Assembly: GCA_964187785.1 (NCBI GenBank)
Contig: OZ076409.1
Location: 62,436,001 to 62,500,000, forward strand
Length of the DNA stretch: 64,000 nucleotides
Reading direction: 5' to 3'
Source: Amphiscolops sp. MND2022
Taxonomy: Eukaryota
In this document: positions 21,871 to 58,079 of the stretch, in pieces
How the letters are laid out: every line of letters starts with the position of its first letter
How positions within the stretch are numbered: position 1 is the stretch's first letter
Made by a program: the position numbers and the translations under genes
The notes under the pieces: generated by a model
What the model saw: the letters and a program-made list of their open reading frames with translations, nothing else
What the model was told of the DNA's origin: nothing
Database searches by the model: none

Positions 21871-24800
21871 TAATATTTCTGCTTTAGCAGGAATATTATT
21901 GTAACCTCAAACTTTCTACTTTTTTTTCAGTACAAATTTTTCGGACGATCTGAATAATTCAGATATTTTGTTCGGCAGTGAGTGTAAGCGTGGGAAAGCT
22001 GCCGACAACAATTCAATTCTAGTGCGATGGAACGAGCGAGGGGTAATTATCCATTCGTATGCTGACGTCATTGAGATGAAGCGAGCGAATGTTCGTAATT
22101 GTGCTTTCGTTGCCCCGAGTTATTGAGATGAAGCGAATGAGTGTTAATTTTTCGTTTGTTGAGAGCTTCGCCTGCATTCAAATGCGAATGCGAAACTTCA
22201 TCGACGCTTAGTAGTTATATTTTCTTTAGTCTGAGAAGAATTAAAGGCGGTGTAAACTTGTACAGTGATTACATGTAATTGTGCGCTAAATAATGATTGA
22301 ACAGGAGTTTATTGATATTCCAGATATGATTCTATTTTTGAAAATGAAAGATAGAAGGGAGTGTGTTGATATTCCAGATATGACTTTATTATTGAAAATA
22401 AAAAAGGAGTGTAGCGAACATTCTACGTCTGATTGGAAAATTGTTTTGAATAACCGGCTTTTCACCATTGTTAACTTCCATAGGGGATAAGTTCTGTCGG
22501 TTTGGAAAATTGTTGATTATGTCCAGCATTTTAGTTTTTTATTTGTCTTTCACTCTCAAAATGGTCTACTTTAGTGTACTTCTATATGGAATAAGTTCTC
22601 TCGGTTTGAAAAATTGTTGATTATTTCCAGCATTTAACTTTTCAAATGTCTAATTCTCAAAATGGCTTACTTCAGTATACTTCGATAGGGGATAAGTTCT
22701 GTCGGTTTGAAAAATTGTTGATTAGGTCCAGCATTTAAGTCTTTAACTCTCAAAATGGCTTAGTTCAGTATACTTCCCTAGGGGATTAGTTCTGCCGGTT
22801 TGGAAAATTGTTGATTATGTCAAGCATTTTAGGTTTTTCTTTGTCTTTAACTCAAAATGGCTTACTTTAGTGTACTTCCATAGGACATAAGTTCTCTCGG
22901 TTTGAAAAATTGTTGAATATTTGCAGCATTTTAACTTTTGAAATGTCTTCAACTCTCAGAATGGCTTACTTCAGTATACTTCCATAGGAGATAAGTTCTG
23001 CCGGTTTGGAAAATTGTTGATTATGTCCAGCATTTTAGTTTTTTATTTGTCTTTCACTCTCAAAATGGTTTACTTTAGTGTACTTCTATATGGAATAAGT
23101 TCTCTCGGTTTGAAAAATTGTTGATTATTTCCAGCATTTAACTTTTCAAATGTCTAATTCTCGAAATGGCTTACTTCAGTATACTTCGATAGGGGATAAG
23201 TTCTGTCGGTTTGAAAAATTGTTGATTAGGTCCAGCATTTAAGTCTTTAACTCTCAAAATGGCTTAGTTCAGTATACTTCCCTAGGGGATTAGTTCTGCC
23301 GGTTTGGAAAATTGTTGATTATGTCAAGCATTTTAGGTTTTTCTTTGTCTTTAACTCAAAATGGCTTACTTTAGTGTACTTCCATAGGACATAAGTTCTC
23401 TCGGTTTGAAAAATTGTTGAATATTTGCAGCATTTTAACTTTTGAAATGAATTCAACTCTCAGAATGGCTTACTTCAGTATACTTCCATAGGAGATAAGT
23501 TCTGCCGGTTTGGAAAATTGTTGATTATGTCAAGCATTTTAGGTTTTTATTTGTCTTTAACTCAAAAAGGCTCACTTCAATGTACTTCCATAGGGGATAA
23601 GTTCTCTCGGTTTGAAAAATTGTTGATTATTTGCAGCATTTTAACTTTTCAAATGTCTTTAACTCCCAAAATGGCTTACTTCAGTGTACTTCCATAGAGG
23701 ATAAATTCTCTCGGTTTGAAAAATTGTTGAACATGTCAAGCATTTTAGGTTTTTATTTGTCTTTAACTCTCAAAATGGCTTACTTTAGTGTACTTCCATA
23801 GGGGATAAGTTCTCTCGGTTTGAAAAATTGTTGATTGTTTCCTGCATTTTAGCTTTTCAAATGTCTTTAACTCTCAAAATGGTTTACTTCAGTATACTTC
23901 CGTAGGGGATAAGTTCTGTCGGTTTGAAAATTTGTTGATTATGTCCAGCATTTTGGTTTTTTATTTTTCTTTAACTCAAACTGACTCACTTTAGTGTACT
24001 TCCATAGGTGATAAGTTCTGTCTTTTCTAAAAATTGTTGAATATTTCCATCATTTTAACTTTTCAATTGTCTTTAACTCTTAAAATGGCTTACTTTAGTG
24101 TACTTCCATAGGAGATAAGTTCTGTCGGTTTGAAAAATTGGTGATTATGTCCAGCATTTTGGTTTTTTTATTTTTCTTTAACCCTCAAAATGACTCACTT
24201 TAGTGTAATTCCATAGGTGATAAGTTCTGTCGTTTCTGAAAATTGTTGAATATTTCCAGCATTTTAACTTTTCAATTGTCTTTAACTCTCAAAATAACTT
24301 ACTTCAGTAAACTTCCATAGGGGATAAATTCTGTCGGTTTGAAAAATTGTTGATTAGGTCCAGCATTTTGGTTTTTTATTATTCTTTAACTCAAACTGAC
24401 TCACTTTAGTGTACTTCCATAGGTGATAAGTTCTGTCGTTTCTAAAAATTGTTGAATATTTCCATCATTTTAACTTTTCAATTGTCTTTAACTCTTAAAA
24501 TGGCTTACTTTAGTGTACTTCCATAGGGGATAAGTTCTGTCGGTTTGAAAAATTGAAAATTATGTCCAGCATTTTGGTTTTTTTATTTTTCTTTAACCCT
24601 CAAAATGACTCACTTTAGTGTAATTCCATAGGTGATAAGTTCTGTCGTTTCTAAAAATTGTTGAATATTTCCAGCATTTTAACTTTTCAATTGTCTTTAA
24701 CTCTCAAAATGGCTTACTTCTGTAAACTTCCATAGGGGATAAATTCTGTCGGTTTGAAAAATTGTTGATTAGGTCCAGCATTTTAGTTTTTTATTGTCTT

Positions 24801-27800
24801 TAACTCAAAATGGCTTACTTTAGTGTACTTCTATATGGAATAAGTTCTGTCGGTTAAAAAATTGTTGATTATGTCAAGCATTTTAGGTTTTTATTTGTCT
24901 TAACTCAAAATGACTCACTTTAGTGTAATTCCATAGGTGATAAGTTCTGTCGTTTCTAAAAATTGTTGAAAATTTCCAGCATTTTAATTTTTCAATTGTC
25001 TTTAACTCTCAAAATGGCTTACTTTAGCGTACTTCCATAGGGGATAATTTCTCTCGGTTTGAAAAATTGTTGATTATTTCTAGCATTTTAACTTTTCAAA
25101 AGTCTTTAACTCTCAAAATGGCTTACTTCAGTAAACTTCTATAGGGGATAAATTCTGTCGGTTTGAAAAATTGTTGATTAGGTCCAGCATATTAGTTTTT
25201 TATTTGTCTTTAACTCAAAATGGCTTACTTTAGTGTACTTTTATATGGAATAAGTTCTGTCAGTTAAAAAATTGTTGATTATGTCAAGCATTTTAGGTTT
25301 TTATTTGTCTTAACTCAAAATGACTCACTTTAGTGTAATTCCATAGGTGATAGGTCCTCTCGGTTTGAAAAATGGTTGATTATTTCCAGCATTTTAACTT
25401 TTCAAATGTCTTTAACTCTCAAAATGGCTTACTTTAGTGTTATTCCATAGGGGATAAATTCTTTCGGTTTGAAAAATTGTTGGTTATTTCTAGCATTTTA
25501 ATTTTTCAAAAGTCTTTAACTCTCAAAATGGCTTACTTCAGTATACTTCCATAGGGGATAAGTTCTGTCGGTATGAAAAATTGTTGATTATGTCAAGCAT
25601 TTTAGGTTTTCAAATGTCTTTAACTAAAAATGGCTTAGTTCAGTATACTTCCATAGGGGATAAGTTCTGTCGGTTAAAAAATTGTTGATTATGTCAAGCA
25701 TTTTAGGTTTTTATTTGTCTTAACTCAAAATGACTCACTTTAGTGTAATTCCATAGGTGATAAGTTCTGTCGTTTCTAAAAATTGTTGAAAATTTCCAGC
25801 ATTTTAATTTTTCAATTGTCTTTAACTCTCAAAATGGCTTACTTTAGCGTACTTCCATAGGGGATAATTTCTCTCGGTTTGAAAAATTGTTGATTATTTC
25901 TAGCATTTTAACTTTTCAAAAGTCTTTAACTCTCAAAATGGCTTACTTCAGTAAACTTCTATAGGGGATAAATTCTGTCGGTTTGAAAAATTGTTGATTA
26001 GGTCCAGCATATTAGTTTTTTATTTGTCTTTAACTCAAAATGGCTTACTTTAGTGTACTTTTATATGGAATAAGTTCTGTCAGTTAAAAAATTGTTGATT
26101 ATGTCAAGCATTTTAGGTTTTTATTTGTCTTAACTCAAAATGACTCACTTTAGTGTAATTCCATAGGTGATAGGTCCTCTCGGTTTGAAAATTGGTTGAT
26201 TATTTCCAGCATTTTAACTTTTCAAATGTCTTTAACTCTCAAAATGGCTTACTTTAGTGTTATTCCATAGGGGATAAATTCTTTCGGTTTGAAAAATTGT
26301 TGGTTATTTCTAGCTTTTTAATTTTTCAAAAGTCTTTAACTCTCAAAATGGCTTACTTCAGTATACTTCCATAGGGGATAAGTTCTGTCGGTATGAAAAA
26401 TTGTTGATTATGTCAAGCATTTTAGGTTTTCAAATGTCTTTAACTAAAAATGGCTTAGTTCAGTATACTTCCATAGGGGATAAGTTCGGTCGGTTTGATA
26501 ATTTGTTGATTATGTCCTGCGTTTTGGTTTTTTTTTCTTTAACTCTCAAAATGACTCACTTTAGTGTAATTCCATAGGTGATAAGTTCTGTCGTTTCTAA
26601 AAATTGTTGAATATTTCCAGCATTTTAACTTTTCAATTGTCTTTAACTCTCAAAATGGCTTACTTTAGCGTACTTCCATAGGGGATAAATTCTCTCGAAT
26701 TGAAAAATTGTTGATTATTTCTATATTTTAACTTTTCAATTGTCTTTAACTCTCAAAATGGTTTACTTTAGCGTACTTCCATAGGGGATAAATTCTCTCG
26801 GTTTGAAAAATTGTTGATTATTTCTAGCATTTTAACTTTTCAAAAGTCTTTAACTCTCAAAATGGCTTACTTCAGTAAACTTCCATAGGGGATAAATTCT
26901 GTCGGTTTGAAAAATTGTTGATTAGGTCCAGCATATTAGTTTTTTATTTGTCTTTAACTCAAAATGGCTTACTTTAGTGTACTTCTATATGGAATGAGTT
27001 CTGTCAGTTAAAAAATTGTTGATTATGTCAAGCATTTTAGGTTTTTATTTGTCTTAACTCAAAATGACTCACTTTAGTGTAATTCCATAGGTGATAAGTC
27101 CTCTCGGTTTGGAAAATTGTTGATTATTTCCAGCATTTTAACTTTTCAAATGTCTTTAACTCTCAAAATGGCTTACTTTAGTGTTATTCCATAGGGGATA
27201 AATTCTTTCGGTTTGAAAAATTGTTGGTTATTTCTAGCATTTTAACTTTTCAAAAGTCTTTAACTCTCAAAATGGCTTACTTCAGTATACTTCCATAGGG
27301 GATAAGTTCTGTCGGTTTGAAAAATTGTTGATTATGTCAAGCATATTAGTTTTTTATTTGTCTTTAACTCAAAATGGCTTACTTTAGTGTACTTCTATAT
27401 GGAATGAGTTCTGTCAGTTAAAAAATTGTTGATTATGTCAAGCATTTTAGGTTTTTATTTGTCTTAACTCAAAATGACTCACTTTAGTGTAATTCCATAG
27501 GTGATAAGTCCTCTCGGTTTGAAAAATTGTTGATTATTTCCAGCATTTTAACTTTTCAAATGTCTTTAACTCTCAAAATGGCTTACTTTAGTGTTATTCC
27601 ATAGGGGATAAATTCTTTCGGTTTGAAAAATTGTTGGTTATTTCTAGCATTTTAACTTTTCAAAAGTCTTTAACTCTCAAAATGGCTTACTTCAGTATAC
27701 TTCCATAGGGGATAAGTTCTGTCGGTTTGAAAAATTGTTGATTATGTCAAGCATTTTAGGTTTTTAATTGTCCTAAATCAAAATGGCTTACTTTAGTGTA

Positions 27801-29578
27801 CTTCCATGGGAGATAAGTTCTCTCGGTTTGAAAAATTGTTGATTGTTTTCAGCATTTTAACATTTCAAATGTCTTTAACTCTCAAAATGGCTCATTTTAG
27901 TGTACTTCCATAGGGGATGAGTTCTGTCGGTTTGAAAAAGTCTTGATTATGTCCAGCAATTTAACATTTCAAATGTCTTTTACTCTCAAAATGGTTTACT
28001 TCAGTATACTTCCATAGGGGATAAGTTCTCCCGGTTTGAAAAATTGTTGATTATTTCCAGAATTTTACTTTTTCAAATGTCTTTAACTATCAAAATGGCT
28101 TATTTTAGTGTACTTCCATGGGGGATAAGTTCTGTCGATTTGAAAAATTGTTGATTATGTCCCGCAATTTAACTTTTCAATTGTCTTTAACTCTCAAAAT
28201 GGCTTACTTCAGTATACTTCCATAGGGGATAAGTTCTGTCGGTTTCAAAAATTGTTGATTAGGTCCAGCATTTTAGTTTTATGGTTTTAACTCTCAAAAT
28301 GGCTTACTTTAGTGTACTTCCATAGGGGATAAGTTCTCTCGGTTTGAAAAATTGGTTACTTCCAGCATTTTAACTTTTCAGATGTCTTTAACTCTCAAAA
28401 TAGCTTACTTTAGTGTACTTCCATAGGGGATAAGTTCTCTCGGTTTGAAAAATTGTTGATTATGTCAAGCATTTTAGTTTTTCAAATATCTTTAACTCAA
28501 AATGGCTCACTTCCATAGGGGATAAGCTCTGTCGGTTTGAAAAATTGTTGATTATGTCCAGCATTTTGGTTTTTGTTTTTAACTCTCAAAATGACTCACT
28601 TTAGTGTACTTCCATAGGTGATAAGTTCTGTCGTTTCTAAAAATTGTTGAATATTTCCAGCATTTCAACTTTTCAATTGTCTTTAACTCTCAAAGTGGCT
28701 TACTTTAGTGTACTTCCATAGGGGATAAGTTCTGTCGGTTTGAAAAATAATTGATTATGTCCAGCATTTTAGTTTTTATTCGTTTTTAACTCAAAATGGC
28801 TTACTTTAGTGTACTTCCATGGGGGACAAGTTCTGAAAAATTGGTGATTATATCCAGCATTTTAGTTTTTTAAATGTCTAACTCTCCAAAGGTATTCGTT
28901 TCGAGTAATTTTTTAAGGGACCTGCAATGTTCGATTGAAAAATTATCGCTTATTTGCGGCATTTTGGTGAATAGTTTGTCTTTGTCTTATAAAATGGTTT
29001 TGTTTAGTATTTTTCAGTTTTTATTGATTATTCTTTCGGTTCCTTTTGCAAATTTTGTCTTCCTCTGATTTGCTATTTGGTTATTTCACTACTCCCATTA
29101 TGTAGACACAATGTACTGGGTAAGACAAGCCTAACCCAGCCTGCACAGTACGAGTGTCTACTGAGTTCTTAGTAATGGTTGACCTCTCTTGAAGCAGGTA
29201 GACCGTTACAGCTCTACTCTTCAAGAATCGGGTTGAGGTTAACCCTAGACTCCAGTAGACACTCAAAATCTCTTGCACAAGTACTGATTCGATTCGATTC
29301 CAATCTTCACTTTTCTTCCCTCTTCGATTTAAATACCTCTACACTGACTATATGGCGGTATCACATGTAAATTGTACAATTTCTCTACGTGGTATGGAGT
29401 TACTGCAATATTGTTTTCATCAATTGTTCTTGAAATTAACTAGCTTGCTCCGTCATTATTTTTTACTTTTGCTGACTTCTCTTTTGTCTTGGAAATAGTT
29501 TTTCTGGCTATCGTTTTTTTGCTTCTGAAAGGGTATAAAAGCAGAAATATTCGTGTGCCCCGGAGGGGCCTATTTTTT
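21871..29578 (+). mobile_element. Expanded HINE/DINE-like family A element carrying a satellite array
   Basis: 5' T-run plus hairpin taatatttctgct-tt-agcaggaatatta. Body homologous to 1561-2030. 3' subTIR aaagcagaaatatt, stem-loop gccccggaggggc and T-run at 29538-29578. Confidence 0.65.
22475..28880. repeat. Satellite array of about 102-bp monomers (roughly 60 copies) with higher-order repeats
   Basis: Monomer cttccataggggataagttctgtcggtttgaaaaattgttgattat...aactctcaaaatggcttactttagtgta. Diagnostic variants recur at periods of 504 (22681/23185), 820 (24851/25671) and 410 (26991/27401). Confidence 0.97.
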
Positions 29579-29671
29579 AACTATTTTTCTAATAGAAAAC
29601 GGCGGGTAAAAATGACACCTACTCTGACTAAACTGAGCACTTAAATCAAGGACCATAGCGAGCTACAGTAC

Positions 29672-31798
29672 TGTCACGGCCCGCTACCGGCCGAGGATGC
29701 GACTTCTGCTACGTGCTGGGCAGAGGAAGAGGCAGAGGGTATTCCAAATACCATTGAACTGAACCCGCTAATGTATGTATGTGTAAGCTAACCTAATTCT
29801 ACTTACAGTACAACTAAGATTAGGCGCAGATAAGCTGTTAAGTGAAAAATCCAACGTAAAGGCTACGGAATATTTTTCAGAAATGATTTTAAAACAGCGA
29901 AATTTCCGGCTTAATGTTTTCACATGTAACGCTATATTGCATTTCCGGTTTCGTTTTCTAAAGCGCCATACCAATCTAAATATTAAAACAGAAACATTCT
30001 CTAATAAGGGATCATTCTTTTTCTGCTCCACACTAAAATGAAAACATGAAAATGAAATTCAATTCCGAGAACCCAACGGAATTCGTTTGATCTAAAATGA
30101 AAAGAGCATACAGATAGAATAGTGGAATTGTTTTCCAGCAATTGGATAGTTGTCAATATTCACTTAAGAATACAATCAAGCAACTCGAGAGAATGTTTAC
30201 AAATTTATGACAGCGTCACGCAACTAGATTAAGGAGTAGGTGTTTCTATTTTTACGGACCAATAGCGTCGTCTCCATCATCCTTAGTTACCATAACAACG
30301 CCAATTGAGCGAGAGAATAAGAATGAGTTTGCTAACGCTGTCCGCTCTAACTCCACAAGCTAACACTGCTTAGCTATAACTAATCTTAATACGTACGGAG
30401 CATCTACCGAGCGAATTGTAAGATTGTAATTCAATTGCTCAGCTATAACTAATTTTAATAACTACGGAGCATTTACGGAGCATTTTGCGAAATTGTAACT
30501 GCAATGCATCATTTCAACCGAGTGTTAAACGAGGTTTTTTTGAATCGACGCATTTATGAATTTGTTAGGAATAAGACTTTATATAAAAAAGGTGTACTGT
30601 AAGAAAGGATGATGTAATCCATACCAACAGCTTTGTTTCTGAATGTGTATTGTTTTTTAGTTTTTCACAATTAAGGATGAAGCTAAAGTATTTACTACTC
30701 TTTCAATACCCTATGTAATTTTGTTGCCTTTTTACTATTAATTGTCAAAATGTCATACAATACTCATGAGTTGTTTATGTATATTAACGGATTGTTTCCG
30801 TCATGCAATTATTTGTCCCAATACTGTTGTTATTATGTTCTGTTGCTGCCCCAGTGATATATACTGTCACGTTAAATGCCATCTTAGCATCGTTTGTCCT
30901 CTATTAGCTTTTAAATATTTGCCATTCCCAATTTCTGTTTCAGTTCCGTTGATATTTTTGAGTGTCATACTTTTGCCTCGAGCGTTAAATTTTCCAACTT
31001 GGGAAATGACTAATTGATCACGCCGGCGTACCTTCGTCGATGAAAATTTCGCCTAGACTTTTATTTTGCCGCAATTTTGAGACTCAAACAGGAAATGGAA
31101 CTGTCTGAACAAAAATGATTTCAACAAATGTCACGGAATAGAGACGCAACTAGGAATTTCGATACCTGATTTTACGACGCGGGACTGAAATGATTTGAGT
31201 CATTAGCACTTTTTGATGAACAAACCTGATTTTTGCGATACCTAGGAATTTTTAGGTGAGGAACAAACAATGCTGGGGAAGTATATAAGTGTTTGCATGT
31301 AAATTTAGGTTAGTTAATTTTGTGATCGCTCTTGTAGTAAAACGTGTCGTTGAGTCAACGTAAAACCACTTCTTTGAAGAATTCACTATTCCCAAAGACC
31401 TTCTTTCCACTACCTAAAAATTACAACTAGAAGTTAGAAAAGAAAAGCAGTAGCAGAACTAGCTTCTGGAGATTTCAAAACCCCTGTAGTCGAAAACAAC
31501 TCTAATGAAAACCTAATTGCTGGACCTAGTAAAAACCCTAGAATAGGGCCTGGGAATCTCGAAGAGATAAAAACATCTTTGAGAAGAGAAATCATGACTG
31601 ATTTAACCAAAATACTCGCAGAAAACCAAAAGGAGATATTCAAACTGATAGCACCGCTAAGCAAAAAACGTTCAGTTTCCGCAAATGTCCAGGAATCTGA
31701 CTCTGAGCCTGGAGATGTCCCTGTAGCTAGAACGTCTACACCCGTGAAAACTAATACTGCGACTGGTTCTAAAACAACACCGGTAAACAGTCGTAACA
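29672..31798 (+). repeat. 5' LTR of the Gypsy element
   Basis: Colinear with 43270-45396, with scattered substitutions. TATA-like tatataag at 31282. Internal duplication of about 68 bp at 30372-30505. Confidence 0.96.
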
Positions 31799-32826
31799 TG
31801 GTGACAGAGTCCTCAATGACTCTACCAACCAACCCATGAAAAGACCGAAACAACAACGTGCATCCAGCGAGCAAACAAAGGACCGTCCTTCAACATCTAA
31901 AATACTGTTCGCACCCCAGCCGCAAACCTTCCCACCTGTCAACCAACTTCCGATGCCGAAAGCACTCACCGCTTCGCTTCCAGTCTTTGATGGTAAGTCC
32001 GAAAAGTTTGAACTTTTTGAGGACCTATTCCGAAACAATATCAAAATACCTCACCTAACCGAGATACAAAAGATCAACTATTTCCACTCTTTCCTACGAG
32101 GAAACGCGCTACAAGCGTACTGCAATCTAGACGACACTAAAAAATACAACCTGGAAGAAGTCATAGCGGCATTCAAACGTCGTTTTGGCGATTTCCAATA
32201 ATCTGCTAAGGCAAGATGCGAGTGGGACGCGCTGCATTTTGACCCCACTAAACAGAAACTCCATGAGTTCCTCGATACCTTGCAAAAAACCGCAAAAGTA
32301 GCGTTCCTCTCAGAGGCACAAAAACTTATTGACAAAGCCATATACGCTAAAATGCCGGATCACGTCAAAAAGATCCTCAATAGAGCCTACCTAGAAGATA
32401 AGCCATACAACAATATAGTGCTGCATCTTGAACGGGAGATGCGACTAAACGGACTAGGTACGCCCGACGAAACAACCCTAGTCCCCCTTACCACAGTGGA
32501 CGCCGTAGTGACGGAAGACAAGAAAGAACAACAACAATGAGGCTACTGTTTTCACTGTGGCAAATATGACCACTACAAGGCACAATGCCGTCGCCTCCGC
32601 AAAGACAGGTATTATGCAACAAAAAACAAACAACACTGAAACAAAACAGACCGAGGCACCAAAACCCAAATGTGACACTTGCGGAAAAATGCATAAAACA
32701 ATAAATTAATGGGACGAAGCCAACGCGGCAAACGACCCCCGCAAAAAGAAACGCGAATTTACCAGCCCAATAAACAAGATCGGTGAACAACCCGTACCCA
32801 CCCCGTCCTCTCAGCCAAAAAACTGG
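31420..32826 (+). pseudogene. gag: Gypsy gag, beginning inside the LTR; decayed
   Basis: The frame MTTRS*KRKAVAE...NSRNMVT (ATG intact in the 3' LTR at 45018, ATT at 31420) continues after a 1-nt slip into LPVFDGKSEKFELFEDLF. Knuckle CFHCGKYDHYKAQC plus a second CDTCGKMH remnant. Confidence 0.85.
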
Positions 32827-35800
32827 AATCGCCGCGCCTACGATTTGAGGAAAAAGTAGACGCGAGGGCGTACACAATAGAGGACCCCCCAAACAGGTAC
32901 GAAGAAGACTTTTTAACCGAAGAACCAACGCAGGACTGGCAACGGCGATGGAATGTCGGAATAATCCTCAGACATAACGCCACAAACCCAGAGAACCCAA
33001 CACCACTACCCCAATGGATAACGGAGTCGCCCGATAACTACGCGACACTCAAAAGACCTCTGCCCGAATCAAAAACGGAACGCATTTACATATACGACAG
33101 AGACTACAGATGTGACCCTTGGGATGAACCAACCATTTACGACACAAATAAACTCTCTTTCAAAATCCAAGTTCCCAACCCGCCAGCCCAATCCACAGAA
33201 ATTCCAAATCTACCATCACCACCGTCGCCCATCCTAAAAAGAACAACACTGTCACCCACAGTACCCGTCACCATCACGTCCACACCTTTAAATGCCGAGA
33301 ATATCATCTGCATTGAGGATAAAACAATATGGTCACGACAAGCAAGAGAACAACGAGAGAACACTGATCCGACCTCATCACTGCTACAAACCGCACCAGC
33401 CACAGCAATGAACGCTGAAGACGAAATAACAACGGGATGTCCTTCAAAGCTACCCGAAGATCTAGATATCATCAAAGAATTCAACCAGCACGACAAACAT
33501 GACGACTACATTCCGTTAATGTCCACAATCGCCCTCAAAAAGAAAAACGCATGCTCTTCCTACCAGTCGAATTCAACATTGTCAAAATCGACGCCTTAGT
33601 CGACTCAGGTGCGTACATTAACGCTATTGGTGAAAGGGATGCTGGAAAATTCCGCCAAAACGCGAGTTAACAAAGCACCACCACTCCCTTTCAAAGTACA
33701 GTACGCCAACGCCGAACTTGAACAACCACTTGCCACGTACACCTTACGCTTCAAAATAGGGGATTACACCTTTGAAGAAACATTCATCATCATGAATCAA
33801 ACGTCATTTTCTATAATTGGCTTGGCGTTCCTACGAAAACACGCCGCAATCCTCGACACTGCCCAAGGAACCATTGACTTCGCGAAGATTCAAATCACAA
33901 TGACTCTCACAGATGAAATGCGAAAGTGCAATCCTAAGCCCATCACAATAAAGACCGAAGCCAAGCATACAATTCCTGCGCACTCTACCCGAATCATCTA
34001 CGCATCGATCCACGTGAGTACTGAACATCCAATAACTGGCACAATACAACCCTTACCGCATATTGACGAATGTGCGAAAGTGATAGTAGCCCCAGCAATC
34101 ACCACAGCCAGGGATAAAAAGGTACCAATCAAAACCGCCAACACCACGGATTTTCCGTATACAATAGCTACCGACACCAATATCGCTGAATTACAAATTC
34201 TGAAGCCAGAAGACACGAAGATGATCCGTACAGTCGACAAAGCCACTCTAAATCTCCTCACCGAACACGTTGACGTAGTTACGTACATCAATGCATTAAT
34301 GCAAGTAGAACGGCCCGAAGATAACGAAGAGAAGTTCTGGTTTCCAACCCCAGAAAACCCAGGAGATGAACAAGAACATTCGCCCATCCAAAAGGGGATC
34401 TTGAAAGAACTACGGGACCTCGCCGAATTAGAAAAACTCGACCCAACTGAAAATGAAAAATCCCGAAACAAATTCCTTGCAATGTTCAAACGGACAGACT
34501 CACTGATTACGGGCAAGGACCGTCACAACCTAGAAAACACCATTGTTGAATTCCATGACATCTTTGCTCGTCACAGACTGGACATAGGCATGAACACGCA
34601 ATTCAAATCAGCCTAACTCCCAATCTCAAGGATGACAAACCAGTCTATACCCAAAGTCTACCAGTTCCGATCAACCTCGAAGACGATCTGACAGTGGAAC
34701 TAGCCCTCATGCACAGATTCGGAATCATCACGACACTCCCCTTCTCCAAATATGCCAGTCCCATATTTGCACAACGGAAACCCAACGGCAAGCTGAGACT
34801 ATTGGTGGATCTGCGCAAAATCAACGCACTCATTGCAGATGACATCAACAACAACCACCCCGTCAGCACCCTCTCAGATGCGGCACAACACCTTGCGGGG
34901 AAGAAACTGTTCTGCAATCTCGACTGCTCCCAGGCATACCACTGCCTCCAAATGGTAGACCAAAGGTCAGTAGAATTACTTGCTTTTAACTTAGCTAGTA
35001 GGACGTTTGCCTACCGTCGCCTAGCCCAAGGCCTAAGCAGAGCGTTGTCAGCCTTCTCAAGCTTCATGCGGGAGTATCTCGACTCAGTCATCAAAGCAGA
35101 TCAGCGTGCGCAATACGTTGACGACATTGGCATAGCCGCAAACACAACGGAGCAACTCATCAAGAACATCAGAGCAGTCTTCAAGTGCATCAGGTAAGCG
35201 GGACTAAAACTGACCATTGAAAAAAGTCATTTTGATGTGACACTAGTCGAATTCCTTGGACGAACCATCACCCCGGACGGAATAGCCCCGAAGGATCGAA
35301 AAATCAAAAATTTTCTTTCGAAAGTTCAATTTCCGAAATCCAAAAAACAAGTTCAAAAGTACATTGGGTTTGTCAACTAATATCGCAACTATATACCACG
35401 CCTATCAGAAAAACTTATCGGAATGTTTGAACTGCTAAAAGCCGACTCCAAGATCAGAATTTTAGAAGAACTCGTCGATAACTTCAAAGAAATTAACGCC
35501 AGCCTAGCGGAGGCCTGCGGTCTTGCACTCAGACAACCCATAGCAGGAAAACAATACGTTCTAATGACGCATGCCAGTTTCTGAGCATCTGGCTACGCCC
35601 TCATGATTGAAGAAAATGATGAACGAAAATTGCTCTCCAAAAGAAAAACGTTCGCACCAGTAGCGTTTGGCTCACGTGTATTTTCACCTGCTCAACTGAA
35701 AATGTCCATCTACTGTAAGGAATTCCTGGCAATCTACCATGCCTTCCTCGAATACAGCCACATACTATGGGAGACAACAATTCCGACACTAGTCCTAACA

Positions 35801-38045
35801 GACAACCGCTCAGTCACAAGATTTTTCCAGACAAAAACGACACCTCCTGCACTCTGGAATGCCTGCGACTACGTACTACAATTCAAGTTCCGAATCATGC
35901 ACGTAGCAGGCTCCCAAAACACGGCAGCAGACTTCCTCTCAAGACTCGAACTCACACCGAAAGAGAAAGTACAACTGAAAATACGTGATGACATACTAAC
36001 GACACCAATTGAGGTCAATCTCCAATCCTCAGACGTAGCGGATGAAGAACAACTTTTCTTCCTACCGGACGAAGAAGAAGAATCCGAACAAAAAATATTT
36101 GCAAGGAAAGCACTCAGCAAGCAGTGTTCTATCGACAAACACGAAAAATAACTATCAACAAAAGTAACTGAAGTCCTCAAGATACCCCTCAACTCCGCAG
36201 TCTACTCGTTCGGCGCAATCAAGGAAAATGCACGAATCAGAAATTAGCAAGATGCAGATCCTCTCCTTAAAGCATAGAAACAACGGATCTCACACGAAGA
36301 ATATGACAAACATCTTCTCAAAACTGAACCAAGAGGACGAAACCTATTACGTCACGAAGAACGAATCATATTGAAAGATGGAGTCCTAATGCAGAAATAC
36401 TACGGGGAAGACGGATCAGTTACACACAACCAAATCATAATCCCAAAACACCTAGTCCCAGAACTCTTGTCCACTCTGCATGGAAAAACAAACAAACACC
36501 CAGGATTTACCGAAATGATACAGGAATGCAGAGCGAAATACTACTTTCCGGGTCTTGCACGTAAAATCAGAGCTTGGGTAACCAGCTGCTCAGATTGCAT
36601 TACCAACAAAAGAATAGACACGAGAGAGATACGTCCCAAATTGCTCAGCAACACCGAATTCACCATGGGACCAGAAGACTGTTTAGAAGTGGACATCTTA
36701 CCGAATCTTACTTCCTCAAATGGATACCAACACATCATAACGATGATGGACGTTTTCTCTCGCTACCTTTTCGCATACCCGACTCAAGACATGACAGCAA
36801 AAACAGTGGCAAGATGCAGAATTGATGTCATGACAAGGCATTGCTACCTACCAACCGTGATACTAACATTCAAAGGGTCACAGTTCAGATCTGAGGTAGT
36901 CAGCCAAATAGCTCAAACGCTCGACATACGGATAAGCCACGCATCAACGAAACATGCTCAAACAATCGGCATCTTAGAAAGAACACACGCTTCTTTGAAA
37001 ACTTCGGTAAAAATTTCAACGGGAGAACGCCGTTCCATGTAGCACAAATACGTCGAAATTGCAGTCATGAACTACAATACAAGCTACCACGAAAGCTCAG
37101 GGTGTGAACCCTTAACAGTGTTCCACGGACGCATTCCGTACAACATCCTAGACATCAAATTTGGACTGAAGCCCAATTGGAAGAATGACAACACCGAAGA
37201 ATTAACGGATCAACTACAAAAACGAATAGCCGAAATACATCAAGCAGCTAAAGACAATTTAATGCAGTCCTATCTGAAATACAAACAGTACTACGACAAG
37301 AAGGCATCAGCTACGTCCTTAACGACTACTGCTACGTCCTTAACCCGAAAGCAGACAATCAATCAATGAAATTTACCTTCAAAGATTGTGTTTGGACTGG
37401 TCCTTACATGGTCGTTAAAGTCCTCTCGAACAATAAATACGTCGTACGTCGCACGGGAACTCGATATACTCAAACCCTCCATAGAATTCGCCTAAGGCTA
37501 TATGCGCTCAATCAGCGAATACCTGACGTAACAGTCAGAAGGGAAGATTACCTTCCAGACCCAGAGGTTAAAACAACCCACAATGATTGGTACGCGCAAG
37601 CTTGGGAAACTGAATTCGTAGAAGTTCTGTTCGGAAATACCACAGACAACGTTTCAGAAGAAACCACAGTTACAGAGATCACAGATACAGCAGGAAATGA
37701 CGACAATACAGCGGAAAATGTTGTGGTTCAAACAAACACAAACGAAACTATTACGGAAAATGACGTGGTTCGAACAACAACAAATGAGAATACTGAAGAG
37801 GATAAAACATCCTCCGATAACGTTACGTCATTCAACCTAGATGTCAGCGATAGTCCATATATTTTGACTCCGCCGCCTATAACAAGCCCCCCCCCCCCCC
37901 AAAAAAAACTTTTGAACTACCACCTATTGTCATTGGGTATAACCCCAGAAAAATTGGAAGATATAACTTGCGACCTAATGCCAATCCTGACTTCAGAATG
38001 CTTGACTCAGTTACTTCGGAAGACTTACGTCAAACTCACAACTAA
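32817..38045 (+). pseudogene. pol: Gypsy pol (long pre-protease region, PR, RT, RNase H, integrase); decayed
   Basis: PR LVDSGA near 33595; RT KLRLLVDLRKIN, LDCSQAY, YVDD; RH EFLAI, TDNRS, NTAADFLSR; IN LH-x5-HPG...CSDC, DVFSRY, ERTH. Gypsy order RT-RH-IN. Confidence 0.93.
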
Positions 38046-38227
38046 ATGAAAAGATCAGCATACCAAAACGAACCGGAATGGCTACGTCAAATTGTGCTTC
38101 AACTTTCTAAACTCTATGAACACAATGGATACCAGACGTACCCCAACAAAACATATACATCAACAAAGCAAATGGAGTCATTAAACAGTACAAAAATTTT
38201 CACTTTATATGACGAAAGACGTTTGGA

Positions 38228-41200
38228 TCAACAGTTTTTTCCGGGCTTCCTTTTATTCCCTTTTTGACTACTCGTACCAGCACCAACTGACTTGCCAGAC
38301 GATGACAGAGGTTTTTTTCCAGAACCCGACTTTTGTACGTCACCTCTAAAATTCTTCGAACCCATATTCGATGAACTACATGCATCTGAGGTAGGAGTTG
38401 CGGCATTCACGCGGGCAAGACAATTTGCTTTGTTACACTCCACATAATGATGCTCATAAGACTTCCGACGCTCCAGTAAATATGTATCATAGGCTTTCCT
38501 ACTCAGTGAAACAAACGAAGCCACTCCGGGATCACAAACATCTTTCCAAACATCATAACCTGGGGTAACGAAAAATATACCAGCACTGGCAATGGCATCA
38601 CGAACTGCACCCAAAGTAGACTCTGTAAAAAACAAACGTGGACAATACCCAGGACTCAACACAAAACTTTGCACGAGCCGGAGACAGTCCTGAAAAATGT
38701 CCTTGCCAATCCTACTGCCCCCCAAGTCGAGGATCACCTGCGGTTGAACTCCGCAAGAACTACCCATAACCAAACAGCATAACTTCAATACGCGACAAAC
38801 ATGATGACGAGCTTGGAAACTAAAATCGTGTAGTAAATACTGCACCACATTAGAAATCTCGCTAGCAGTAATGTTGGAGCGATCGTGCTGCCTCCGCTTC
38901 TCAAGAATGTAATTGTTAAACTGCTCAACACTCGTTTTTGTCTCATCCGCAGCTAGTAACCCACATGACCCTAGCACACCAGTCAAATCGGCAAAAAGAC
39001 GAAACACTGCACTATCATCACCCTCGAGCATATTTTCAGGGCAAATACAGCTGAAGCCACGGGCCACTCTCGACGAAACTGCAGGATTCTTTAGGATGAC
39101 GAATACCAAACGATCAAGGAACTCTTTGCAGTGAACACGGAATTCCAAGACTCCACTCGTCTTACCAGCGGACAATAACCGACCGAAATCACAATTCTCA
39201 AGGAACGATTCAATTGGAGCGGGAGGAAATTCGGCCACCTTTTCGACATCCATATATTCCTCCCAGTCATGAATAGGAGGCAAACTGGAGATGTCTCGAG
39301 TCTTCATCAAGAGGCAGTAGACGAAATGACACAGCTCTCCGTATCCTGCCGTACATGGAAGCCTTAATCTGCCCGACACTGTTGTAACTTCTCAAACTTG
39401 AAGAAAACTAAAACAGAGAACTTACAATTTTTCATCAGACAGAAGATCGAAACTCAAATAACGAACAACAGTCGGAACAACAGATAGAATCCCAGACGCA
39501 ATCGATATACCCGAAGAACAATTCATCAGTCCAGAAATCATACTCACATGTATCGAGCACGAAACGTAACAACTCGAATCGATATGTAATTATATCATCA
39601 GCAACCAAATGCCAATCTGGACCTCGCATCTAAACCACACAACAAAACTACAAACAAAACAAGCCAATTCTCACTTCCACAAGACAAACATGCAATACTA
39701 ACACTATCGTCTTTCTCTTTTGCTTCGGGATTCCCAGTGCAGCGAATGTAAGGACGGACCGACGGCCACAGATCGATCAAATCATTCAACGGGCACGATA
39801 GTCACAGAAATTGACGGAACCCTGCCGAACACGCTTGCGCAACACTGGCTTACCCTCCGTCCACTCCTCGTACAACGCACTTTTTAGTCGCTGCACAACA
39901 TAATCCACAATCGTCACCACCTCCACCAAACCAAAGACATCCTTGTGAGCCTGTCGGAAGCACTGCAAGAAAACCTCTTCACTGAAGGATTGATATATGA
40001 CGAAGCGACGACCACCCTCGCGAATGTTTCCCAAAACCCGAACCAATGACGGACTAGCACCAGAAAGAGCAACTGGCAGCTGCTTAGTGGGAAGGCTTTA
40101 TACAATTCGCGACAAAGGCATCAACTCTGCATTGGGGACGGGCTGTTCTAAAGGCTCTTTTCCAATACACACCTTCTTCAGATGGTTTTCTTCCCAGCAA
40201 AGCACATAACGGAACTCCAAGGACGCTGACTTCTCGAATTGCAAACTCTACCCTCTCAAGGAGGTAATGTGCTTGACCATCAACCACAACACGCGAGGGG
40301 CCAAGGCTTGGCACATAATTGACTAAAATATAGACGCCATTGTCACCGCGACATACAACGCAGGAAATTCCAGCCGAAAAGAAAAGAAAAAGAGACAACA
40401 AATCCTACGCAAAACAAATAGGAAAAAGACGAACATCTTACCACGGTTTCGGAACGGCTCCAATTCAAAGCGAACTCAGTTTTCCGATGGCCCAAAGACG
40501 AACAAAAATGGCCCTCTCCCAGACAACCCACAAACGTCATGAACGTAACTTTAGATTCCACCCCAGAGTGTTTCTCAACAAGATCCTCAGGGAACGGGTA
40601 CTCTTTTTTAAGATCTTCGAAAGGTTTAGCCCGATATTCAGCCAACTGTGCCGCTGTCATTTCCATGGGTTCCATCAAACGATTAAGGACCGGCAAACCC
40701 ATGTGCACCCTGTAAGTCACGTCCTTGATCCAATGTTTGTCAGACTCAAAATGACGCCTAAACTCTCCGGAGCCCTGTGCTTTCATGGCCACATCACGAC
40801 AGCACACTCGACAATGGAAGTACGTCGCCTGACCGTTCTTTGCATCGCTCACGAAGCTCTTGTAGGCAGGGTGGAGATCTAACATGCGGCGATGCAACAA
40901 CTTACGGCTGCTGTATTTCTTGGGAGCTCTTTGGCCTCCAACCTTTTCGCTGAGTTCACGGAATCCTACAACACAAAAACGCTCCTAACAAAAAACAAAA
41001 AATTACAAAAACAAACAAGAGAAAGAAACGGAGGAGAAGAAACCACAACCCACAACCAGAAACCAAGCGAAAACAAAACGACAAACAGGCAATAAGCAAA
41101 AGAAAAGGCCCACAATTAAGCATTAAATTAGCAACATTTCAGTGCGGATAGTTTGCGAAGTCCGATTCCCCACCTCGTCCACCAAGCGCTGACTCAGCCG

Positions 41201-42063
41201 CATCAGCTCACTTGAAGTGACCAGCATATCATTTGCAGAGGCAGCCGGATCCTCTTCTTGACTGTCCCAACCTCCACGTGCTCGAATCAATGGTGGTGGG
41301 CTCGGAGGAGGAGCAACAGCTTTCATGGCTCGCTTAGGTGGCGTTGAAAAATTCACAGACGGCCTTGTATCGGAACAACTTTTAAACCCTAATAATACAG
41401 ATTCAACAAAAATACTACCCGCCATACCCTCGTCCTAAAGTAATACTTAACAATGTTTTCAACAACTAGCTTGATCTTTTCTCAGCAGGGGGATGGTCTC
41501 ACCTCCTTGAGACTCACTATCGGTAGACAGTCCGAGACTAACTCCAGCGCCCCCTGTAAGTACACGAGATCCACTTGTCACAGTAGCTGACAGAGGAATG
41601 TTGACAGAACCGCTAGGTACAGCAGGATGGGAAGTCTCAAGATCAGGAACAACCAAGGTGGAGACCAATGCCTCGTTAACGGAACTAGTCCGGAAAGCAG
41701 GAAGAACTTCGGAAATTGAAGGCAGAACAGTAATGGAAGTTCTAGTTATCTCCTCATTGGCTTTCAGGGACTCCCCCACTTGGGATACAGTGACAGTAGA
41801 ACAAATGACAGGTTGAGTTACTGAAAATTAAGATCTGGTTCAGACGCGTCAGGAAATCGGGTAAGACTACAAAGGCTGATCACCAAAAAAACAAAACCTA
41901 AATACCCATGGAAGTCAGAAAAATTTTGCCAACCTGGGACAGGAGGTCCAATATCGGAACCAGACGGAATTACATCGTCGTCGCTGAATCCAAAAACAGT
42001 CTCATTCCCACTGACAAAGCCTGTAGACGTAACAGGAGGAGGAACGCCCTCATCATTATCCAT
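38228..42063 (-). pseudogene. Antisense multi-exon hAT-transposase-like gene inside the Gypsy element; BED-like finger present, catalytic acidic residues apparently lost
   Basis: FHCRVC-x13-RHFESDKH finger; RSETV/SIMCQALAP..SLQFEK; LIDLWPSVRPYI; LEFRVHCKEFL...RGFSCICP; 383-aa ORF 38228-39379. Phase-0 GT-AG introns at 40441-40323 and 39702-39630, and a long pyrimidine tract ending at acceptor 40966. Confidence 0.6.
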
Positions 42064-42099
42064 CTTTAGAAATCAGTAGAAGAAATCTCCTCAGCAATC

Positions 42100-42650
42100 G
42101 AAAAAAGAAAAGAACATTTAGAAAAAATGAAGAAGAATTACGTTATGTGAACGCAACTAACTGACAGGAAATTAACATTATCACTCCTGTACAATTGAAA
42201 AGTTACATAATCTTCAACTTCAATAAAAGCCTAATATGGCATTGACGGAACAAAAGGTTTCCAGAACTCTCCAGGTGAATTAAAAGTTCACCAAGAAGCT
42301 CTGAAGAAACCCTTTCAAAAAGCCATTTCAGATATTACGCTTAGGAGCCGTATTCCCTTTGAAAGAAACTGATGACGTCATTACGACAAAGCTGAAACGA
42401 AACGAAACTAAAACGGAATTTTCTTTGAATTAATTAATCTACCAATCACAGAGAAGTTGAAAGTTCGTCGCCTTAAAAGGTCAGGACGGACCGGAACGAA
42501 AGCGGGAAAAATCAACCAATAAAATTCGAAGAGAACCACGACGGAAAAGAAATTGAAACGGTCATTTGTCGTCCAATTTTCAAAGAAGCTTGACCAGCAT
42601 TTTCTCTCTCCAAACTAACTGCGCAAATCTCCTACACGAATCAAAGTCTA
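42100..42650. promoter_or_regulatory. Candidate internal bidirectional promoter
   Basis: Lies between divergent ATGs (42063 on -, 42653 on +). CRE palindrome TGACGTCA at 42373-42380; CCAAT boxes at 42442 and 42516. Confidence 0.4.
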
Positions 42651-42652
42651 AA

Positions 42653-43355
42653 ATGGACGGCTACTCACTCGTCATAGACATATCTTCAGACGAAGAAAAT
42701 ATGAGACACAGCACCCCAATAAAAACCCTGCCACTCAACTTAATCAGGACGCTGAATATCAGCGATTCGTCCACGGAAGTTTATAGGGGCAGCGAAGCAG
42801 AATTAGACTCCACTTGGGAATCCGAGTGCTCTCCAAAGAGAGCGAAATTGTCACCTCAGAAGAAGAAATTAGCAAAAGTTACGTTTAAGCTGCCCGCCGC
42901 CGTTTGCAAACAAAAAAATAAATTGGACTCTGATTCTGACGATTTCTACGAAGAACCAGACTCGTCTTTAGAAGAAATGCATCTGAAAGCATCACGGAAA
43001 TCAAACGTCCAACCCGGGCAAGAAACCCAGGGAAGCAGTCTGAACGACCTCAACGAACCCACAAAACCCCCCGAAATTTCCCGCGAAGAAAAAGAACATC
43101 AAGAAGCTATGATCAGAGAACTAGAGGAAGAAGAAAAAAAATCGCCTATATGACTGCGGGTAGAGGGTCCCCATCAAATACGTAAATTCATCAGCCGCCC
43201 CCTGTAGTCATAAAGAAGGAGATCCTCATTGCCACAACCTTCCGGTGTCTATGGCTTCAAGAGGGGCCCTGTCACGGCCCGCTCCCGGCCGAGGATGCGA
43301 CTTCTGCTACGTGCTGGGCAGAGGAAGAGGCAGAGGGTATTGCAAATACCATTGA
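42653..43355 (+). pseudogene. Sense accessory ORF (about 230 aa when repaired) running into the 3' LTR
   Basis: Open 42653-43153 (LVIDISSDEE, PKRAKLSPQKKK, acidic tracts). Removing one A from the A-run near 43135 and reading through one TAG extends it across the PPT to ...GRGCDFCYVLGRGRGRGYCKYH* at 43355. Confidence 0.55.
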
Positions 43356-45396
43356 ATTGAAACCGCTAATGTATGTATGTGTAAACTAATCTAATTCTAC
43401 TCACAGTACAACTAAGATTAAGCGCAGATAAGCTGTTAAGTGAAAAATCCAACGTAAAGGGTACGGAATATTTTTCAAAAATGATTTTAAAACAGCGAAG
43501 TTTCCGGTTTAATGTTTTCACATGTAACGCTATATTCCATTTCCAGTTTCGTTTTCTAAATCGCCATACTAATCTAAATACTGAAACAGAAACATTCTCT
43601 AATAAGGGATCATTCTTTTTCTGCTCCACACTAAAATGAAAACATGAAAATGAAATTCGATTCCGAGACCCCAGCGGAATTCATACGATCTAAAATGAAA
43701 AGAGCATACAGATAAAATAGTGGAATTGTTTTCCAGCAATTGGATAGTTGTCAATATTCACTTAAGAATACAATGAAGCAACTTGAGAGAATGCTTACAA
43801 CGTTATGACAGCGTCACTCAATTAGATTAAGGAGTAGGTGTTTCTATTTTTATGGACCAATAGCGTCGTCTCCACCGTCTTTAGTTACCATAGCAACTCC
43901 AAGTGAGCGAGAGAATAAGAATGAGTTTGCTAACGCTGTCCGCTCTAACTCCACAAGCTAACACTGCTTAGCTATAACTAATCTTAATACGTACGGAGCA
44001 TCTACGGAGCGAATTGTAAGATTGTAATTCAATTGCTCAGCTATAACTAATCTTAATAACTACAGAGCATTTACGGAGCAGTTTGCGAAATTGTATCTGC
44101 AATGCATCATTTCAACCGAGTGTTAAACGAGGTTTTTCTGAATCGACGCATTTATTAATTTGTTAGGAATAAGACTTTATATAAAAAAATTGTACTGCAA
44201 GAAAGGAAGATGTAATCCATACCAACAGTGTTGTTTCTGGATGTGAATTGTTTCATTAGATTTTCACAATTAAGGATGAAGCAAAATTATTTACTACTCT
44301 TTCAATACCCTATGTAATTTTGTTGCCTTTTTACTATCAATTGTCAAAATGTCATACAATACTCATGAGTTGTTTATGTATATTAACGGATTGTTTCCGT
44401 CATGCAATTATTTGTCCCAATACTGTTGTTATTATGTTCTGTTGCTGCCCCAATGATATTTACTGTCAAGTTAAATGCCATCTTAGCATCGTTTGTCCTC
44501 TATTAGCTTTTAAATTATTGCCATTCCCAATTTCCGTTTCAGTTCCGTTGATATTTTTGAGTGTCATACTTTTGCCTCGAGCGTTAAATTTTCCAACTTG
44601 GGAAATGACTAATTGATCACGCCGGCGTACCTTCGTCGATGAAAATTTCGCCTAGATTTTTATTTTGCCGCAATTTTGAGACTCAAACAGGAAATGGAAC
44701 TGTCTGAACAAAAATGATTTCAACAAATGTCACGGAAAAGACACGCAACTAGGAATTTCGATAGCTGATTTTACCACGCGGGACTGAAATGATTTGAGTC
44801 ATTAGCGCTTTTTGATGAACAAACCTGGTTTTTGTGATACTTAGGAATTTTTAGATGAGGAACAAACGATGCTGGGAAAGTATATAAGTGTTTGCATGTA
44901 AATTTAAGTTAGTTAATTTTGTAATCGCTCTTGTAGTAAAACGTTTCGTTGAGTCAACGTAAAACCACTCCTTTGAAGAATTCACTCTTTCCAGAGACCT
45001 TCTTTCCACTACCTAAAATGACAACTAGAAGTTAGAAAAGAAAAGCAGTAGCAGAACTAGCTTCTGGAGATTTCGAAACCCCTGTAGTCGAAAACAACTC
45101 TGATGAAAACCTAATTGCTGGACCTAGTAAAAACCCTAGAATAGAGCCTGGGAATCTCGAAGAGATAAAAACATCTTTGAGAAGAGAAATCATGACTGAT
45201 TTAACCAAAACACTCGCAGAAAACCAAAAGGAGATATTCAAATTGATAGCACCGCTAAGCAAGAAACGTTCAGTTTCCGCAATTGTCCAGGAATCTGACT
45301 CTGAGCCTGAAGATGTCCCTGTAGCTAGAACGTCTACACCCGTGAAAACTAATACTGCGACTGGTTCTAAAACAACACCGGTAAACAGTCGTAACA
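43270..45396 (+). repeat. 3' LTR of the Gypsy element
   Basis: Colinear with the 5' LTR and followed by the TSD AGTAC. Confidence 0.96.
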
Positions 45397-45649
45397 AGTA
45401 CAGTACTTCATTTGCAGCCGAGTTGTCTATCGATTATCAACTTGGAGCTGTGATTCCGAAACGACTTCGGAAATGTCAAAAAGTATAATTGCACGACTTT
45501 ACTCTTTTGATTTTTGTTTTCTATTCGCACCAAATTCGTTTGTTTTATTACCAGACAACAAAAGATTCGAGCATTCATTCCGCACCATCAAAATGTGAAT
45601 ATCTAAACGTTTTATGATTCAAAGTTTAATTTTTCGACTAAATCTGTTT

Positions 45650-54201: not shown

Positions 54202-54210
54202 ATCCAATAC

Positions 54211-55300: not shown

Positions 55301-55446
55301 TTTTTCAAACTGTATATAATTGCAGCTTTTTGAGAATTTGTTTCTACCGGTCTACTGGGATGGTGGCTGATATGAGCAGGTTGTTAGTTTTTTGTTGTTA
55401 CTGGTCGACTGGGATAGTGGCTGGTATGGGGTGCCCTACTTCCGTT

Positions 55447-55818: not shown

Positions 55819-55834
55819 CTTTCGTTACAGTCAA

Positions 55835-57000: not shown

Positions 57001-57010
57001 TTCGAACCAA

Positions 57011-58078: not shown

Positions 58079-58079
58079 A

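Follow-up and report, generated by a model that had tools for sequence, protein, structure and literature searches.

A selected two-gene module with a probably hAT-derived antisense gene lies behind pol in a Gypsy retrotransposon clade of Amphiscolops

We analysed a 64,000-nucleotide stretch of the genome of Amphiscolops sp. MND2022 (assembly GCA_964187785.1, contig OZ076409.1, positions 62,436,001 to 62,500,000 of the forward strand; hereafter the window, to whose numbering plain positions refer). Positions 29672-45396 of the window are a decayed pseudogene copy of a large clade of Gypsy long terminal repeat (LTR) retrotransposons. Between the end of pol (~38047) and the polypurine tract (43259-43269) lie about 5.2 kb that hold two divergent accessory genes, a seven-exon gene on the minus strand and an open reading frame (ORF) on the plus strand. 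Comparison with sister copies shows that this two-gene module behind pol is real, integral and selected in a successful Gypsy clade. The antisense protein very probably derives from a DDE transposase of the hAT type (hAT5/hAT6-like). For the element the two proteins may sustain transcription against host silencing, the role that we favour.

The initial annotation had described the block as integral rather than nested, lacking terminal inverted repeats (TIRs) and an env-like ORF, and had proposed to check whether it is colinear across copies. When the last antisense exon or sequences related to it served as queries against the 1.07 Gb genome, at least 107, 106, 99, 95, 51 and 138 matches were obtained, in partly overlapping lists. 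Pol was located directly upstream of the antisense gene in all 34 loci that were fetched (20/20, 10/10 and 4/4), a few of them old copies with internal deletions or duplications, and none of these loci, found via the antisense gene, carried the block outside a Gypsy element. A harder sample comprised 20 of 149 integrase matches, picked for having no antisense match in the prior lists. Exon 7 was present behind pol in 19 of these copies, while the twentieth was an internal deletion that joins the pol tail in frame to C-terminal sequence of the sense ORF. The block is retained with unchanged layout out to a clade at 79% reverse transcriptase (RT) and 51% integrase identity, which has an intronless antisense ORF of ~870 aa with a short acidic upstream exon and a sense ORF of 240-265 aa that runs into U3. 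No match to the TIRs of the related transposon family described below was found at the block, in agreement with the earlier reading. The absence of an env-like gene held in 15 of 15 families, none of which has a sense ATG-initiated ORF of at least 200 aa in the antisense part, and hydropathy over 19 residues peaked at 0.4-1.6 in the four accessory ORFs tested. The features of the block are as follows.

38228-39407, minus strand: antisense exon 7; helical insertion domain, degenerate third catalytic region and S/K/G-rich tail; a stop and an 8-nt insertion near 39350
39548-39629, minus strand: antisense exon 6
39703-40322, minus strand: antisense exon 5; predicted RNase H-like core (beta-beta-beta-alpha-beta-beta) that lacks the catalytic aspartates; in this copy interrupted by stops and a 1-nt deletion
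40442-40965, minus strand: antisense exon 4; C2H2 (BED-like) zinc finger at ~40735-40820; 45-nt deletion at 40514
41140-41388, minus strand: antisense exon 3; STPPKR, resembling a nuclear localisation signal (NLS); donor damaged in this copy
41471-41820, minus strand: antisense exon 2; S/T/V/P low complexity, GC-type donor; 1-nt deletion near 41494
41821-41933, minus strand: antisense intron 1, near the boundary of the swapped cassette
41934-42063, minus strand: antisense exon 1; ATG at 42063, acidic
42064-42652, no strand: divergent spacer, 589 nt; cAMP response element (CRE) at 42373, CCAAT at 42442 and 42516, ACCGGAA and TTCATTTG boxes, conserved in position
42653-43153, plus strand: sense accessory ORF; VIDISSDEE (resembling a SUMO-interacting motif, SIM), STPIK, KVTF (RVxF-like), YEEP and an acidic coil

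The antisense gene runs from 42063 to 38228 and is interrupted by six introns. That it is a spliced gene, as the initial annotation had it, is supported by GT donors after exon 1 and after exon 4 (each in 15/15 families), by intronless relatives in which exons 4-7 run in one frame, and by one family in which intron 6 is exactly missing while the nearest relative keeps it. The precision of this loss would point to a gene that is spliced and, now and then, copied back. Some families have an extra intron in exon 3 and others are without it. Since the gene is oriented antisense, its introns would survive reverse transcription of the genomic RNA.

Intron 1 is 91% identical across 14 families compared with 44% for intron 4, and is far more conserved than the antisense exons. 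It can form a GGGTAA/TTACCC-GACT/AGTC stem around a palindromic TGATCA with 2-3 compensated pairs, and two of its variants pair as G-U only on the strand of the genomic RNA. Speculatively, the stem is a candidate protein-binding site or RNA dimerisation/packaging site; the leader of this element is already taken up by gag.

The sense ORF starts at 42653 and stops in this copy at 43153, 117 nt before the LTR, so that the earlier statement that it runs into the LTR fails here. For the family it stands: in all 13 families with an open ORF the frame crosses the polypurine tract and ends ~90 nt into U3, corresponding to ~43355 in the window. The protein has 233-301 aa, is hydrophilic and has no Pfam match. 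IDISSDE, which we read as a SUMO-interacting-like motif, is invariant in 13/13 families, and an RVxF-type motif, presumably resembling PP1-docking sites, is present in 12/13.

The spacer between the two genes contains the CRE TGACGTCA at 42373 and CCAAT at 42442, 42516 and 42573. In shuffled spacers a CRE occurred in 0.45% and two CCAAT boxes in 22%, such that the CCAAT boxes count solely through their conserved position. The comparison covered the 10 of 17 intron-rich spacers that could be delimited (7 could not) and 4 intronless ones. The exact CRE was present in 8 of the 10 intron-rich spacers and a one-base variant in the other 2, and all 10 had two CCAAT boxes ~70-75 nt apart; the CRE was absent from 4 of 4 intronless spacers. 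Two genes diverging from a promoter-like CRE/CCAAT spacer had been noted before, and the conserved positions bear this out. Judged from these motifs the spacer is probably a bidirectional promoter.

The origin of the antisense protein was approached by a genome search with a transposase motif that has no counterpart in the antisense protein itself. The search gave 17 places, 10 of which are copies of a single DNA transposon family that ends in CAGGG...CCCTG and has target site duplications (TSDs) of 5 or 6 bp (10/10 copies). TSDs of 5 and 6 bp define hAT5 and hAT6 according to PMC12730594; the hAT5/hAT6 label used here follows from TSD length and hAT homology, not from comparison with Repbase entries. 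Profiles of the antisense protein matched the CAGGG family with 8-10 bits for the finger and up to 33 bits for the helical domain, compared with a maximum of 8.3 bits in 400 shuffles and about 0 for the canonical hATs of the genome. Among 15 full-length database relatives of the CAGGG family, FDE and SMDG were found in 15 and HGNA or HGQA in 14. With hhalign a 30-row antisense profile aligned to these relatives over 493 colinear columns from the finger to the insertion domain (P 94.4%, E 8.5e-8), and the CAGGG family in turn aligned to canonical hAT (P 91%, E 9.4e-7). The family is also of interest in itself: it is young, mixes 5- and 6-bp TSDs within one family, and all ten copies seen are internally deleted.

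Within this alignment the finger is kept. Its Cx2C...Hx5H residues are invariant or nearly so in 17 rows and align to the finger of the CAGGG family. The first catalytic aspartate is replaced by E in 14/14 aligned intron-rich rows and by Q, R, H, K or L in 30/30 intronless rows. The second is G in 15/16 intron-rich rows and D in only 4 of 30 distant intronless rows; the latter support the register of the alignment. For the third residue, the HGxAxVExGFS motif is absent from the antisense proteins. By these comparisons the protein has lost the DDE catalytic triad and retained the zinc finger. Those ESM Atlas neighbours that have a family assignment were mostly hAT-derived, with scores of up to 0.85, which we treat as a lead only. 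AlphaFold models had confidences (pLDDT) of 64.8 for exon 7 and 52.6 for exon 5, the latter showing the expected strand-helix order.

Other results weigh against this descent. The antisense profile compared directly with canonical hAT was negative, such that the link to canonical hAT is indirect. Exon 5 alone gave P 0.45% against the transposase profile, and the full hhalign alignment ends before the third catalytic residue. Further searches were silent. Pfam found no family in either accessory gene, even when four full-length intronless antisense proteins were searched at E up to 10; zf-BED did not match the antisense protein, nor did any Pfam family match the CAGGG transposases. A search for DUF4371 gave no match, and its controls were likewise silent. 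A fold search with the exon 5 and exon 7 models yielded nothing over background and no match above Z 4.9, Hermes not being listed, and PDB sequence searches were empty or at chance level. A scan of JGI metagenomes gave no relative, and database relatives share only 26-54% identity with the sampled families. Taking both sides together we hold descent from a hAT-type transposase to be very probable. With such a descent of the gene, the block probably began as a nested DNA transposon that was later domesticated by the retroelement. The initial annotation, right in calling the block integral, overlooked this descent as well as the swapping of the gene described below.

The ratio of nonsynonymous to synonymous substitution (dN/dS), which the initial annotation had suggested to compute for each ORF, was obtained from 16 young copies (120 pairs), the antisense values being taken from unsaturated pairs only (23, 58 and 49 of 120). 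Median protein identity was 92-95% in the pol domains and 51-62% in the antisense exons. The dN/dS was 0.02-0.03 for pol, 0.115-0.172 for the antisense exons and 0.08-0.36 in 11 of 12 pairs for the sense ORF. At the codon level this shows purifying selection on both accessory ORFs. It also bears on the idea that the block is a neutral relic of a nested DNA transposon, merely copied along with the element. Such a relic would explain the transposase homology, and the 29672-45396 copy is itself a pseudogene. However, at least 15 families have open frames and conserved splice sites at saturated dS and a dN/dS well under 1, and retention extends to the clade with only 51% integrase identity. A neutral relic is therefore next to impossible, being refuted by a between-family dN/dS far below 1.

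Trees of RT, integrase and the sense ORF have one deep split in common, which the antisense tree ignores (15 families; 13 for the sense ORF). One pair of families is identical to 99% in integrase and 87% in the sense ORF and to 52-59% in the antisense protein; in a second pair these values are 98%, 96% and 53-62%. Sliding windows place the bounds of the exchanged segment at the end of pol and in the region of intron 1 and the promoter. These comparisons show that the antisense gene has been swapped between families as a cassette, independently of pol, LTR and sense gene. A cassette that travels from backbone to backbone in one piece, has a separate phylogeny and descends from a selfish element could be a selfish passenger or addiction module, kept because copies without it are harmed or outcompeted. 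Against such a module it counts that the block has no TIRs of the related transposon family, occurs outside Gypsy elements in 0 of 34 loci and has no toxin-like domain by Pfam, and we regard it as improbable.

A regulatory module had been proposed at the outset and is our preferred reading too. We favour, at slightly under an even chance, that the accessory pair is the element's own chromatin regulator, an anti-silencing pair that would sustain transcription against host silencing. The following course of events may be envisaged. A hAT5/hAT6-like transposon would have inserted behind pol in reverse orientation and then lost its TIRs. The CRE/CCAAT spacer would drive the two genes in opposite directions and independently of the 5' LTR. 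The dead transposase would bind DNA via its finger, probably at a conserved rather than an allele-matched site, because no LTR segment tracks the antisense alleles. The disordered sense protein may bind SUMO via VIDISSDEE and PP1 via RVxF and in this way blunt SUMO-dependent silencing. Template switching between co-packaged families would cause the cassette swaps, and pressure from the host would keep the many divergent antisense alleles in circulation. Precedents exist for parts of this scheme: transposases are described as sequence-specific intrinsic activators that lose DDE on co-option (10.64898/2026.08.24.746577), hAT-derived ZBED1 is described as activating genes via SUMO ligase activity (PMC7471704), and gene23 of Grande is reported as nuclear with its own promoter (PMC7264820). 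The fullest version, in which a domesticated transposase acts as anti-silencing factor together with a SUMO/PP1-hijacking partner on a bidirectional promoter, and dozens of alleles circulate as an interchangeable counter-defence cassette, would give an env-free element an arsenal of retroviral grade; in this complete form we find it doubtful.

Several points count against an anti-silencing pair. The antisense gene is swapped without regard to the sense gene, so that joint action of the two proteins is not required. Purifying selection is a sign of usefulness to the element and does not tell which step is served. The SIM and RVxF readings follow general motif definitions, and short motifs of this kind arise by chance. 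Finally, none of 18 LTR windows co-varied with the antisense alleles (rho -0.18 to 0.05, p at least 0.33), and therefore no cognate target could be identified; most of the windows track integrase (0.13-0.83). An allele-matched LTR target of the antisense protein, comparable to that of a Tat- or Tas-like LTR activator, is rejected for now on this ground.

The same independence from the LTR sequence would suit a role away from the LTR promoter. The dead transposase may serve a later step, escorting the complex of cDNA and integrase into the nucleus or tethering it to chosen chromatin, with allele swaps changing the target niche. Binding to DNA ends and to chromatin is common to transposases, the antisense protein has retained its zinc finger and basic NLS-like stretches, and nuclear import has been proposed for plant antisense ORFs according to PMC7264820. 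However, integrase is conserved to ~92% and the antisense protein to 51-62%, a poor match to a tight partnership, and the TSDs are of the ordinary 5-bp Gypsy type (clear in 9 of 10 further families of the clade). We consider a later-step helper unlikely.

Many coexisting alleles would also suit self/non-self discrimination, and the module could be a brake that limits copy number, the element or its competitor families being repressed by the dead transposase or by antisense RNA. A SIM may either recruit SUMO-linked repressors or block them. Double-stranded RNA could arise where antisense transcription crosses the genomic RNA, as discussed in PMC7264820, and a domain related to transposable elements serves silencing in MAIL1/MAIN of Arabidopsis (PMC5418596). 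Yet a purely costly brake should vanish, whereas only 1 of the 20 integrase-picked copies is without the module, and the codon-level constraint implies that the protein matters and not the RNA alone. We hold a brake to be slightly less likely still than a later-step helper.

The anatomy of the element outside the module is held with high confidence and comprises the following features.

29667-29671, no strand: left TSD, AGTAC
29672-31798, plus strand: 5' LTR, 2127 bp, TG...CA; 69-bp tandem pair inside at 30367-30498
31420-32825, plus strand: gag; its first 379 nt lie within the LTR and the frame continues across the primer binding site
31799-31810, plus strand: primer binding site, one base shorter here than in sisters
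32787-38047, plus strand: pol; ~270-aa spacer, protease region, RT, RNase H, H2C2 and rve integrase, long acidic tail
32817-32823, plus strand: AAAAAAC at the gag-pol junction
43259-43269, plus strand: polypurine tract AAGAGGGGCCC, within the sense ORF in sisters
43270-45396, plus strand: 3' LTR; gag ATG at 45018
45397-45401, no strand: right TSD, AGTAC

The matched LTRs and the 5-bp TSD of the initial annotation were both recovered: the LTRs, 2127 bp each, are 95.6% alike (2033 matches, 93 mismatches, 2 gap columns; Kimura two-parameter distance 0.045) and AGTAC stands on both sides. Sister families are young, with LTR pairs 98.7-100% alike in 10 of 10 further families. Copies of one family lie ~13.96 kb apart at C13:16.51-16.55 Mb and C9:27.44-27.46 Mb, suggesting tandem elements with shared LTRs.

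Of 14 intron-rich families, 13 have the gag ATG 379-382 nt inside the LTR; in the intronless ones (3 of 3) the distance is 343 nt. Together with the sense ORF at the other end this makes both LTR ends coding in the family, as had been claimed. In undamaged sisters gag has ~469 aa and a single CCHC knuckle. Gag of the copy at hand is broken: the 5' LTR is without the start codon, both LTRs have an early stop, and more frameshifts and stops follow. AAAAAAC was also found in 5 of 5 sisters examined and is probably a -1 frameshift site. Pol of this copy contains 9 stops and several frameshifts, and like gag and pol the antisense gene and the sense ORF are broken. Pfam identifies RVT_1, RT_RNaseH, Integrase_H2C2 and rve, which is the Gypsy order. 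Protease is represented by a DSG motif upstream of RT only and has no Pfam match. The ~270-aa stretch ahead of protease (32787-33599) is conserved, and between protease and RT (33950-34280) there is a faint match to the dUTPase family (Herpes_ORF11, E 0.065).

The primer binding site of sisters has 13 nt that are the complement of a tRNA-Leu(CAA)-type 3' end encoded in the same genome. This intron-containing tRNA-Leu is missed by ARAGORN; Rfam detects the locus in an array but not two dispersed matches. The array, at C8:35.59-35.64 Mb and onward, repeats intron-containing tRNA-Leu(CAA)-type genes in tandem with a period of ~296 bp. The tRNA-Leu(CAA) pattern has 923 matches in the genome, those listed lying mostly in the C8 array, and is the primer type used by the Gypsy clade.

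The window around the element holds only fragments of transposable elements. A 104-bp satellite with ~60 copies and a 410-bp higher-order repeat lies just left of the element at 22474-28879. At 12723-16802 there is a fragmented copia-like gag-pol with integrase before RT (by eye), and a 398-bp repeat of 98% identity (9079/11587) flanks a LINE-like fragment. The positions 1557-2038 and 21867-22339 form an 89% direct repeat 20.3 kb apart, each within a hairpin-like inverted repeat. Several copies of a ~180-bp dispersed repeat occur in both orientations at 53765-63931, and an N-run near 58080-58280 lies beside a Polinton-type polymerase-like fragment (by eye).

By analogy the module would work as does the accessory region in complex retroviruses or in plant Retand/Grande elements, and it belongs to neither. 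In foamy virus an internal promoter serves tas/bet, and in HIV nef overlaps U3. HTLV-1 has the antisense gene HBZ (PMC11963269). The Amphiscolops clade resembles these viruses: its accessory genes lie in the 3' half together with a promoter-like internal region, one ORF crosses the polypurine tract into U3, and one gene is antisense. Unlike them it has no env, its pol is of the Gypsy type and there is no sequence link to retroviral accessory proteins. Of the retrovirus-like organisation proposed at the outset, the accessory ORF over U3 stands for the family, and the comparison as a whole is one of convergence only.

Closest among known cases are the antisense ORFs that Retand and Grande carry in plants. 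Plant Gypsy elements of the Tat lineage (Retand, Grande, RIRE2) are described as having 2.9-6.6 kb between pol and the 3' LTR with conserved antisense ORFs, that of Retand with a domain named Transposase_28 (PMC7264820, PMC11963269); the review PMC7264820 calls the origin of these ORFs unknown and similarity to transposable elements unsupported. The position between pol and 3' LTR is shared. The Amphiscolops antisense protein differs in having no match to TRP28 (PF04195) or any other Pfam family (four intronless proteins and the exons), and the clade differs in its origin traceable to hAT, its six introns, the second, sense gene reaching into U3 and the swapping of cassettes. With hAT5/hAT6 transposons (PMC12730594) and domesticated hAT proteins such as ZBED1/DREF (PMC7471704) the antisense protein shares the C2H2 finger, a predicted RNase H-like core and the helical insertion domain; unlike them it is without the triad, its block is without TIRs, and the probable domesticator is a transposon, not a host.

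Transposon-encoded proteins that favour their own element provide a further parallel. VANC of VANDAL elements is a fast-evolving accessory protein proposed to keep its element active. The transposase-related TnpA of Spm is proposed to do the same (10.64898/2026.08.24.746577). Both belong to plant DNA transposons and bind family-specific motifs, unlike the present LTR retroelement, for which no co-varying target was found. LTR elements of bdelloid rotifers are likewise animal Gypsy-like elements with extra ORFs other than env and modular exchange; the captured ORF3s that PMC5408684 describes are env-like or encode a GDSL esterase or DEDDy exonuclease, and in contrast to the antisense gene none of those described there is transposase-derived. 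The open literature yielded no previous description of an LTR retrotransposon with a gene derived from a hAT transposase, a scope that leaves aside Repbase Reports and most subscription journals, and the relevant sections of PMC13269885 have nothing on such a gene.

To the question of how antisense extra ORFs of Gypsy elements arose and what they do, the Amphiscolops clade contributes a case that can be traced, in which one transposon was probably domesticated by another. Built-in controls come with it: the young families number at least 15, there are variants with a lost intron or with none, cassettes have been swapped naturally, and one copy carries a natural deletion. If the anti-silencing reading is true, the module would represent a counter-defence of a retroelement against SUMO-linked chromatin silencing, and the allele swaps would make this arms race testable.

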